From the NCBI GenBank assembly GCA_000165345.1, contig CM000433.1, forward strand, positions 768,001 through 832,000: a DNA stretch of 64,000 nt, given 5' to 3'. Position numbers and translations under genes: made by a program. Shown here piece by piece: positions 32,201-35,200 of this stretch. A model generated the notes under the pieces. That model saw only the letters and a list, made by a program, of their open reading frames with translations. It had not been told where the DNA came from and did not search any database. Positions within the stretch are counted from its first letter, which is position 1. Every line of letters starts with the position of its first letter.

Positions 32201-35200
32201 GAGGAGTAAAAAGACGACAAAGAGAAGTTCAGGTTCCAGCAACAGGAGGAGGTAGATGTGAATTTGAGCTCAACCAAAAGGTGGGTTGCAATGGCTTTAA
32301 ATGCCCAGGAGAACCCTGCATAGACAGACCAGAAGCCCAGGAGGTTGTTCCTTGCTCTATTTTGAAAGCAATGTTTGGTTGCCAGAAACGACTTATTGAT
32401 GTAGCCAAGTCTAATGGAGTGCCTTATCCAGATGATCGCCCACCAGAAGCAAGAATTATGGATGGATGTCCAGCAACTTGTGGAATGTGTGTTGAATGTG
32501 CTCCAGGATGCCAATTAAGAGATGTAGGGAACTTGAGCTGTGATCCTGCATGCAATAACGCAGCATGCAGGTTTGACGATGGGGACTGTGAGAAGAACAG
32601 CCCTCAAAAGGCTTCTTGTATCCTTCCAAAGCTTCCAGAGGCTTTTCTATTTTTGTCAAAAAAAGAAGACCAGGTAAGAAAAGGAAACGGAAGTGATTTT
32701 CTGGAAATTGGAGGAAACTCAAATTCCGGAAAAAAGGAAGCTCAGAATATTCTGAAGGATAGTAGTGATAATAACCTTGTCGTGTTGGAAAGTTTTACTT
32801 CTCAGAGTAGTCTAAATAGCTCCTCTGGAAAATCTAATAATTATGGCTTTGCAGGTAACCAGGCTCAGATGCAGGTCCATGAAATGGAATTCTCCCAAGA
32901 AGATTATAATAATGAACGTCATGGAAATGATGGTAGCAATACTATTAGAGAATACAAGAAAGGCGATACAGTTTACATTAGATGTGATAAAGGAAAGAGG
33001 TTTAGAAAGTACACAGCTATTCCCTATTTTAAATACCAATGCAAAGAAAGTGGATTTATTCAGCTTATTGAACCAAAAGGTGCTCCTTTACTTTACGTTG
33101 ATGGAGATGGTATCCCAAGAATCCCCACTTGTGAAGAAGATGAATGTCCATATTTGATGGCACAAGAAGCTCCTCAGATGATTGGAACAGTTAATACTCT
33201 ATATAAAAGGGATTTAAGTCATTCATACACATATATTATGTATAGAGATATTGGAGAACCAATATTTATTACTGGAGATCATCAGAGGATTATATTGGGT
33301 CCAGTTGGAACTCTTTACTTAATTTCTATAGATTCATTTTACCCAGAGTTTGGAGACCCTTCATTTGAAAAGTATAGATTATGGAGTTTGGTTGATATTT
33401 CTCAACAGAAAATCATTCAAGAATTTGTGGAGCTTAAGCTGGTCTGTGTAAAGAATCCCAACTCTCTTAATAGTAATTTAATGAGTACCAATTCCACTAC
33501 AGATTCTGAGATAGTTAAGGCTTCTTTCAATAGGCCTTTAAGATTTCTTTCTCAAGTATATTCAAATTCAAACCTGAGTTCTCGAATCATAGACTTTAAG
33601 GCTTCTGATGAAGTTCCTGATTTTGGAAGAAATCTTCAAGAGAAGCCTTACACTTATGTAATGGGGAAAAAGAGGTTTTGTGAGGACCAACCGGAAGTTA
33701 AGGAACAGGGAATACTTTGCGAAACTTTATCAACAATGTGTGATATTAATATTCCTAATCCTCAAAATTATGGATTGCCAGAGAATAGTTTTGTTTGGCA
33801 AATCTGCCCTTCAACTTGTAATAAATGTAAGGAATGCTCTGCTGGATGTCCTGAGTGGTTTAAAGGTAATACTGTTTGTGATAAGGCTTGCAATAATGAG
33901 GCTTGTAACTTTGATGATGGAGACTGTAAGGGAGTTCAAAGCGAACAAGATGATAATGAAATTCAAGGAAAAGATAGTGAGAGAAATGATATTGAGAGTG
34001 AGCATAAAAATAGAAATTACCATGAAAAGAATAATATTAAAGATGACCAGGGAGATGAAGATTCCAGAGAATTTACTAGTAATATAGTTATTCCAGAAGG
34101 TGCAGTTACATATTTTGCAGGAAAGTTTAGAAACTGTACAGATATTCCTGAGCTTATAGACTCTCTTGCAAGTTGTAAGGCACTTAAGCAAACTTGCCAG
34201 CTTAAACTACCTCTTTCAGCCTCCTCATTAGAGGCAGGGCTATCTCACTCTTCAACCATTAGCCAGGTTTGCCCAAAGACATGTGGTATTTGTGAGGAAT
34301 GTGCTCCTGGATGCCCAAAATGGTTTATTAAGAATGGCTACTGCGATGTCAACTGTCAGAATCCAGAATGCCAATTTGATGGTGGGGATTGCTCTGATGA
34401 TAATATAACTAGAAATCCAAAATTACCCATAAAGAGTCCAAATGATTCCGATATTTCTTCAGGTTCTACTTCAAATTCTTATCAAAACTCAAGTGCTAGC
34501 AAAAATAATAACTCTGGAAAGAACAGCTGTAAGGATAATCCAATCATATTTGAAGTGTTTAATAGAAGCTGTGAAGAGCTTAAAACAAGCTTTGGATGTA
34601 GTATTAATTTGGAGAAGATTATCCAAACTGGAACTAAGCTCCCAGATCGAATAAAGCCTGGTACTAAATTAAAAGAACTATGTAAGCTAACGTGTAAGAA
34701 CTGCTCTAATAAGAAGGATGATGATAGGATTACTGGTATTGGAAAGAATGACCAAACAAATAAAAATGCAGATATTAAAACAGAAAGGCCTTATACCATA
34801 ATCTTCAATGAGAAAAGATATTGTGAAGACCAACCAGAAGTAGCAAAAAAAGGAATTAGTTGTAAGAACTTATCTTCTATGTGTAATGCATCAATTCCAG
34901 GAGCAAAAACTTATGGGCTTCCTGATGGGACTCCAATTTGGAGGGTATGTCCTTCAACTTGCAACAAATGTAAAGAATGCTCTGCTGGATGTCCTGAGTG
35001 GTTTAAAGGTAATACTGTTTGTGATAAGGCTTGCAATAATGAGGCTTGTAACTTTGATGATGGAGACTGTAAAGGAGTACAAAGCGAACAAAATGATAAT
35101 GAAATTCAAGGAAAAGATAATGAGAGCTCTGCTGGAAGAAAAGAGGGATATGAAATTGATTCTAATGGTATAATTAAGGAAAATAGAGGTTCAGACGAAA

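Follow-up and report, generated by a model that had tools for sequence, protein, structure and literature searches.

Two LNR cores within the TRAP-C2 gene of Cryptosporidium appear to evolve in concert through recurrent short-tract gene conversion

The stretch analyzed here, referred to as the window, comprises 64,000 nucleotides (nt) of contig CM000433.1 of the Cryptosporidium parvum assembly GCA_000165345.1 (positions 768,001 to 832,000 of the forward strand). It carries the gene for TRAP-C2, also called CpTSP2, a single-exon open reading frame (ORF) at 29242–40851 on the plus strand that encodes 3869 amino acids (Q5CRC0; EAK88035.1). NCBI and UniRef records name the product either TRAP-C2 extracellular protein or TSP1 domain-containing protein TSP2, and the gene identifier of CpTSP2 is cgd5_3420 (PMC13095730). 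Two LNR modules of this protein, LNR3 and LNR5, are embedded in related cassettes, termed A and B. We consider it highly probable, at roughly 0.9, that the cores of the two cassettes evolve in concert, by recurrent short-tract ectopic gene conversion within the gene that followed an ancient duplication.

TRAP-C2 is organized as a signal peptide, ten TSP1 repeats, six LNR modules, ten modules containing six cysteines (six-Cys modules), a transmembrane helix and a short tail. The LNR is a small calcium-binding module. Pfam recovers TSP1_spondin in ten stretches of the protein (1e-101) and Notch/LNR (PF00066) in six (2.8e-21), the latter with 76.1 bits against a cut-off of 21.2, which places these segments within the family. 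A motif search based on six cysteines and a D/N-rich signature likewise yields six LNR sites. PDB sequence matches for the LNR are to the Notch repeats of GNPTAB (E = 6.6e-8) and to the NRR of Notch1/2/3; chains 7s05, 2oo4 and 1pb5 are among those matched. The translation displays an N-terminal hydrophobic leader and a C-terminal hydrophobic stretch, and the transmembrane helix of CpTSP2 has been located at residues 3758–3780 (PMC13095730). As judged from its sequence, with a signal peptide, TSP1 repeats, a single transmembrane segment and a short cytoplasmic tail, TRAP-C2 qualifies as a member of the TRAP/TSP family and is predicted to be adhesin-like.

The ten six-Cys modules span 50–64 residues each, end in CxxTCxxC, and are found at residues 38, 1026, 1480, 1632, 1763, 1861, 2010, 2095, 2160 and 2395. 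Five of them sit directly before an LNR and constitute a recurrent didomain of six-Cys module and LNR. Membership of the ShK/ShKT family was considered for these modules and rejected, the criterion being a match to the whole 37-position profile: Pfam ShK (PF01549) aligns with three of eight modules only at the C-terminal CxxTCxxC motif, with 13.8–20.1 bits against a cut-off of 20.9, and finds no match in the modules of cassettes A and B. Because these matches are sub-threshold, the term ShK-like is used here as a description and not as a family assignment. No Sushi/CCP domain was detected by Pfam in C. parvum TRAP-C2 at E ≤ 0.01. By name, the Toxoplasma gondii orthologue TGME49_223480 and others are each a 'sushi domain protein', and descriptions of PgTSP2 list Notch, TSP1 and Sushi domains.

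Cassette A (33640–33984; residues 1467–1581) consists of a short lead-in, a six-Cys module, LNR3 and an acidic linker, and cassette B (34783–35127; residues 1848–1962) of a paralogous lead-in, a six-Cys module, LNR5 and an acidic linker; these and the other features of the gene are on the plus strand. The six-Cys module of cassette A (33679–33828; CEDQPEV...CPSTCNKC) is ShK-like at its C-terminal CxxTCxxC and lies mostly outside the converted tract. Its counterpart in cassette B (34822–34971), which begins and ends with the same motifs (CEDQPEV...CPSTCNKC), is 58% identical to it in amino acid sequence. LNR3, CSAGCPEWFKGNTVCDKACNNEACNFDDGDC, occupies 33835–33927 and is recognized by the motif search, by Pfam Notch and by the PDB sequence matches; LNR5 (34978–35070) is identical to it in both nucleotide and protein sequence. 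Between the cassettes lies an unconverted interval (33985–34782) that comprises a linker, the six-Cys module M4 with LNR4 (34300–34392), a second linker, the six-Cys module M5, which has no LNR, and a third linker. LNR4 shows 57% nucleotide identity to LNR3 and LNR5.

Apart from the repeat contained in the two cassettes, the 64-kb window has none of 40 nt or longer. When mismatches are tolerated, this repeat spans 190 nt at 93% identity (33794–33983 and 34937–35126). Within it, an exact direct repeat of 98 nt (33832–33929 in copy A and 34975–35072 in copy B) recurs at an offset of 1143 nt. A previous inspection of the DNA, the sequence-only reading, had described an identical core of 97 nt at this spacing; the core is real and begins one base earlier. 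The same reading counted three mismatches in the next 50 nt, which is essentially right (three in 47 nt, four in 50 nt): they fall at 33930, 33936, 33949 and 33977, and the similarity stops at an indel near 33984. Its estimate of 65–70% identity for the flanks was too high, as the upstream flank (33640–33810) retains only 57% identity to its partner (73 mismatches in 171 nt), and downstream of about 33985 the ungapped identity drops to background, at 13–43% per 30-nt window. Beyond 33640–33985, ungapped identity at an offset of 1143 nt is at background on both sides. In a GENECONV-type test, the 82 mismatches of the 346-nt cassette were permuted 200,000 times; no permutation produced a run of 98 nt or more, the longest being 61 nt, and the analytic bound for a 98-nt run is approximately 3e-12. 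The locus is accordingly a mosaic, with a near-identical core set in strongly diverged paralogous sequence.

The DNA of the locus was compared among 11 loci of seven Cryptosporidium species, covering C. parvum (the window and a second assembly), C. tyzzeri, C. hominis (three assemblies), C. meleagridis, chipmunk genotype I, C. xiaoi and C. bovis. Over the whole gene, identity to C. parvum amounts to 98.4% in C. tyzzeri, 97.6% in C. hominis, 94.2% in C. meleagridis and 86.8% in chipmunk genotype I, and C. xiaoi shares 49% protein identity over the queried segment. The gene had been portrayed as fast-evolving. The value for C. hominis lies within or below the 3–5% quoted for the genome divergence of C. 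parvum and C. hominis (PMC2928199) and does not agree with that description. All seven species possess six LNRs, with an A-to-B spacing of 1107–1149 nt, and both copies are found in all 11 loci, each anchored by unique flanks. A metagenome scan with the degenerate pattern CPEWFxGNTVCD gave no match.

Flank and core behave differently across these species. The flank was taken as 33640–33810 (171 nt) and the core as 33811–33975 (165 nt) in a five-species comparison, and as 33640–33807 and 33808–33936, respectively, in a seven-species comparison; a site was scored as shared species-specific when the copies agree within every species and the base differs between species. Among five species, the flank has 49 fixed copy-specific sites and a single shared species-specific one, and the core has none and 16, respectively (Fisher p = 2e-14). 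The contrast is preserved among seven species, with 15 fixed copy-specific and two shared species-specific sites in the flank against 0 and 38 in the core (Fisher p = 1e-11). Within each of the five species, the flanks of A and B differ at 71–78 of 171 sites; within species, the cores differ at 0–2 positions in 98 nt. The homogenized zone, in which no species has a fixed copy-specific difference, covers 33808–33976 in copy A and 34951–35119 in copy B. Inside the 98-nt tract there are 13 co-varying sites, and 12 of these are synonymous third positions.

Neighbor-joining trees show the same division. In the flank tree, copy A is monophyletic with 100% bootstraps. In the core tree, all four copies of C. 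xiaoi and C. bovis cluster together (100%), as do the A and B copies of chipmunk genotype I (77%). Orthology of the flanks and co-variation of the cores are thus both read directly from the alignments. Since the upstream flank groups by copy and is about 43% diverged between copies, the duplication is ancient, and it is older than the divergence between the C. parvum clade and that of C. bovis and C. xiaoi. The site patterns and the trees together strongly support the gene-conversion tract, or concerted evolution, that the sequence-only reading had put forward.

These comparisons also bear on whether the identity could reflect constraint at the nucleotide level, imposed by strong codon selection or by an RNA or DNA element embedded in the core, for example, with no exchange between the copies. 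The perfect identity in C. parvum, third positions included, would fit such a constraint. The core, however, varies between species. Over its 98 nt, C. parvum differs from chipmunk genotype I at 14–16 positions (14–16%, compared with 13.2% gene-wide), and C. parvum and C. xiaoi differ at 43–45 of 129 sites (34%), with 3–8 differences between A and B within species; the orthologous flanks of the latter two species differ at 36–44 of 168 sites. Between species, divergence of the core is therefore no slower than that of the flank and the rest of the gene, which is not nucleotide conservation. Parallel selective fixation of the 12 synonymous changes in both copies is implausible, and the LNR fold itself does not impose such identity, as other LNR pairs within TRAP-C2 are only 49–69% identical in nucleotide sequence and 32–58% at third positions. 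We regard a constraint of this kind as extremely improbable. Nor is the LNR held constant, as had been suggested, given that 9 of 34 LNR residues differ between C. parvum and C. xiaoi or C. bovis. If anything, the comparison of C. parvum with C. xiaoi suggests that the homogenized core evolves faster than the flanks, although this difference is only marginally significant. A comparison of GC content at third codon positions (GC3) gave no signal of GC-biased conversion in the C. parvum group, with values of 0.22–0.32 for the core and 0.23–0.36 for the flank. In C. xiaoi and C. bovis, the core shows a slight excess over the flank (0.30–0.35 versus 0.20–0.23), calculated from few sites.

A simple recent duplication, either of a segment of about 190 nt or of the whole 1.1-kb unit and with no conversion, could in principle generate a core that is 93–100% identical over 190 nt. 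It is at odds with the presence, at orthologous positions in seven species, of both cassettes with their own diverged upstream module, and with the species-specific changes common to both copies, which a single duplication, whether old or recent, cannot produce. The 1.1-kb unit also lacks high identity throughout. At degenerate codons for identical amino acids, the same codon is used in only 10 of 26 cases in the flank, compared with 49 of 54 in the core. With old, orthologous flanks in which synonymous sites have reached saturation, a recent duplication can be excluded for all practical purposes.

The possibility that the identity is an artefact of assembly or polishing deserves consideration, in that an exact repeat of 98–137 nt approaches the length of short reads and would be mapped ambiguously; the true cores might then differ, or exist as a single copy, and the consensus would have been homogenized by mis-mapped reads. 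Several observations make this very unlikely. The identical TRAP-C2 protein is encoded on four C. parvum contigs longer than 1 Mb, including chromosome CP044418.1 of C. parvum IOWA-ATCC, and a separate GenBank record (AAO39046.1) gives the same protein sequence in both cassettes. The 11 loci of the seven species carry both copies with uniquely anchored flanks and a core sequence of their own in each species. Furthermore, the same two differences between A and B recur in three independent C. hominis assemblies.

The pair had been described as a tandem duplication. Cassettes A and B are indeed the mutual closest pair among the ten dispersed six-Cys modules, at the 58% amino acid identity given above, but no such pairing extends to the modules behind them: M4 and M7 are 27% identical and M5 and M8 are 25% identical, no better than any other two modules. 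A colinear BLASTP alignment continues past the cassette at the generic module level only. A head-to-tail unit of 1143 nt is therefore not demonstrable, and the 1143-nt interval is the spacing of two related cassettes within a modular array. Duplication of a three-module block, from A, M4 and M5 to B, M7 and M8, was considered and rejected on the grounds of the unpaired following modules.

Unequal crossover, the other process proposed for this locus, would stay in frame, since 1143 equals 3 × 381. The converted tract is flanked on both sides by old copy-specific sequence, and neither copy number nor spacing departs from the values given above in any of the seven species; non-reciprocal conversion is for these reasons favored over unequal crossover. 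The C. parvum 90% cluster contains 11 protein records with full lengths of 3869–3872 residues, except for one C-terminal fragment, and no length variant of the kind expected from unequal crossover is found among the available records. More broadly, the 11 DNA loci and 13 protein records reveal no copy-number or large length polymorphism. The only length changes observed are indels in multiples of 3 nt within the linkers, and the suspicion that this is a site of assembly collapse or length polymorphism is thus not borne out.

Recurrence of the homogenization in several lineages is visible at individual sites. At 33867, G/G (copy A/copy B) is shared by C. tyzzeri, C. meleagridis and chipmunk genotype I, compared with T/T in C. 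parvum and A/G in C. hominis. Besides this difference in both copies, C. parvum and C. tyzzeri differ in a single copy at 33930, 33936, 33949 and 33957. At 33921, C. meleagridis has C/C and chipmunk genotype I has G/G, and the state in C. parvum, C. tyzzeri and C. hominis is A/A; at 33937, C. meleagridis has G/G, C. parvum and C. tyzzeri share C/C, and C. hominis and chipmunk genotype I share A/A. The sister species C. bovis and C. xiaoi are distinguished by two synonymous differences, each present in both copies. Based on these multi-state sites, the C. bovis/C. xiaoi changes, the chipmunk branch and the deep split between the C. bovis and C. parvum clades, at least five or six independent conversion events are required, one of which took place in C. 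parvum once it had diverged from C. tyzzeri. Over the seven species, the longest stretch identical between A and B measures 98, 137, 47, 133, 96, 53 and 114 nt, a variation that separate events and later decay would be expected to produce.

The two edges of the homogenized zone differ in their behavior. The 5' limit is the same in all seven species, at approximately 33802–33808, in the codons just before CPxTCNKC. The 3' limit varies within the linker: the zone reaches about 33976 in the C. parvum group but ends near 33946 in chipmunk genotype I and near 33936 in C. xiaoi and C. bovis. Among the three C. hominis assemblies, copy A carries isolate-specific single-nucleotide polymorphisms (SNPs), namely a Ser/Asn replacement (AGC/AAC) at the equivalent of 33940–33942 and, in one assembly, a synonymous change at 33840; copy B is unchanged at both positions. 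These SNPs may be young mutations awaiting conversion.

Under the conversion model, a stretch of some 100–170 nt, which runs from the end of the six-Cys module through the entire LNR into the first part of the linker, would be copied repeatedly and non-reciprocally between direct repeats 1.1 kb apart. Repeated copying of this type would explain why both LNRs are near-identical within a species, synonymous sites included, and change together between species. The events may begin with a double-strand break in one copy and its repair from the other, located on the same chromatid, the sister or the homologue, with a non-crossover outcome; synthesis-dependent strand annealing or meiotic non-crossover conversion are the routes we infer. 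The upstream module, with its divergence of about 43%, probably blocks the extension of heteroduplex and fixes the 5' edge, and a boundary limited in this manner would perpetuate itself. In this view, the fixed 5' boundary would be a passive result of divergence rather than of selection. In Cryptosporidium, meiosis occurs in every oocyst generation. Data from crosses leave the share of conversion in the observed exchange undecided (PMC10769859).

Some points weigh against this interpretation. Conversion is read here from sequence patterns, and no event has been directly observed. No segregating conversion allele was detected among two C. parvum and three C. hominis assemblies, and in these few assemblies the tract looks stable within species. 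The sample consists only of the seven species listed above, with gastric and avian species lying outside it. Finally, the shared 5' boundary could reflect selection against converting the six-Cys module, a possibility that adds to conversion and does not contradict it.

A different role for selection would be the active maintenance of identity between LNR3 and LNR5 as an interchangeable or symmetric pair, for instance one that engages the same docking partner. Conversion would then be only the means, and lineages in which the copies drift apart would be eliminated. In favor of this proposal, homogenization dates back to a time before the C. parvum and C. bovis clades diverged and has continued since, LNR3 and LNR5 are identical in protein sequence in all seven species despite two to four synonymous differences in C. 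hominis, chipmunk genotype I and C. xiaoi, and the position of the 5' boundary is shared by all species. On the other hand, the fast-evolving, low-complexity acidic linker is also homogenized and is unlikely to need identity, and the remaining differences between the two LNRs are nearly all synonymous simply because few sites differ. A passive model, in which conversion takes place only where identity is still high, accounts for the fixed boundary, and the other four LNRs of TRAP-C2 are free to differ. On balance, maintenance by selection appears unlikely. The same holds for the idea that the persistent identity is adaptive, with LNR3 and LNR5 serving as a matched pair; they might, for instance, provide two equivalent Ca2+-dependent docking sites or, by analogy with the Notch LNRs, an intramolecular clamp that regulates shedding of TRAP-C2, a proposal that we consider doubtful. 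If the pair were adaptive, conversion would allow new LNR variants to arise at both sites together.

Recurrent gene conversion between the cassettes, the reading we prefer, has known parallels. The human fetal gamma-globin genes HBG1 and HBG2 evolve in concert by ectopic conversion and combine a converted tract with diverged flanks. As in that pair, TRAP-C2 presents a sharply bordered homogenized tract within older, diverged paralogous sequence, the paralogues within a species are closer than the orthologues between species, and synonymous or non-coding sites co-vary. Unlike HBG1 and HBG2, the partners in TRAP-C2 reside in one ORF, 1.1 kb apart, and the tract is very short, about 100–170 nt, equivalent to one 35-residue module and its borders. 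Polyubiquitin and CSP-type repeats are examples of tandem repeat arrays of parasite proteins that also evolve in concert (PMC10457151; PMC13309793), with units homogenized within species and between-species differences common to all units, which is likewise the pattern in TRAP-C2. Those arrays contain many head-to-tail units, are homogenized mostly by unequal crossover or slippage and vary in copy number; by contrast, TRAP-C2 has two dispersed copies at a nearly constant spacing and an unchanged copy number. The process is textbook concerted evolution by ectopic gene conversion, and the TRAP-C2 case is new: within the literature searched, no paper deals with gene conversion in TRAP-C2/CpTSP2 or with concerted evolution of this gene in Cryptosporidium.

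The LNRs of TRAP-C2 share the six-Cys, Asp/Asn-rich signature and the length of about 35 residues with those of the Notch NRR, PAPP-A and GNPTAB. They differ in that they belong to an apicomplexan, TSP1-rich transmembrane protein, and in that the LNR is fused directly behind a six-Cys CxxTCxxC module instead of forming part of a triplet guarding a cleavage site. Orthologues of CpTSP2 in T. gondii (TGME49_223480), Porospora (PgTSP2) and Chromera (Cvel_8866/8867) are large transmembrane proteins with TSP1 and LNR (plus Sushi) domains (PMC9250747). The Toxoplasma, Cardiosporidium, gregarine and Chromera outgroup proteins retrieved contain one to four motif-recognizable LNRs and no identical LNR pair; in the available sample, the A/B pair and its homogenization are found only in Cryptosporidium.

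The remainder of the window has the gene content of a typical compact, intron-poor chromosome arm of C. parvum. It encodes, among others, V-ATPase subunit d, adenylate kinase, Der1, an M16 peptidase, a TPT transporter, a DnaJ protein, a 5'-nucleotidase, a DTW-domain protein, GrpE, Brf1/TFIIB, GLTP and a methyltransferase of the NOL1/NOP2 type. A second giant ORF at 13691–24820 on the plus strand (3709 amino acids) has no Pfam family at E ≤ 1e-4, and the ORF at 11414–13255 gives a weak Kazal match. The lowest GC content of the window, 0.21–0.24, is found across 22–26 kb.

The finding has practical consequences for work on this gene. With an identical tract of 98–137 nt, close to short-read length, this segment of cgd5_3420 cannot be relied on when reads are mapped, SNPs are called or recombination is scanned for. 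SNPs seen in both copies should be read as conversion and not as two mutations, and phylogenies or dN/dS estimates that include the converted segment would be misled. The forward primer of the classical TRAP-C2 typing polymerase chain reaction, in what we take to be its published sequence, matches exactly at 29797–29820; this position is 4 kb upstream of the repeat, and legacy TRAP-C2 typing data are therefore unaffected. The known function of TRAP-C2 is not altered by these results. TRAP-C2 offers a clean and small case of concerted evolution below the gene level, in a genome where repeats are very scarce, and its converted cores constitute a natural marker by which conversion could be measured in crosses. 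On this evidence, ectopic conversion has operated repeatedly in Cryptosporidium, with tracts of about 100–170 nt, since before the clades of C. parvum and C. bovis split.

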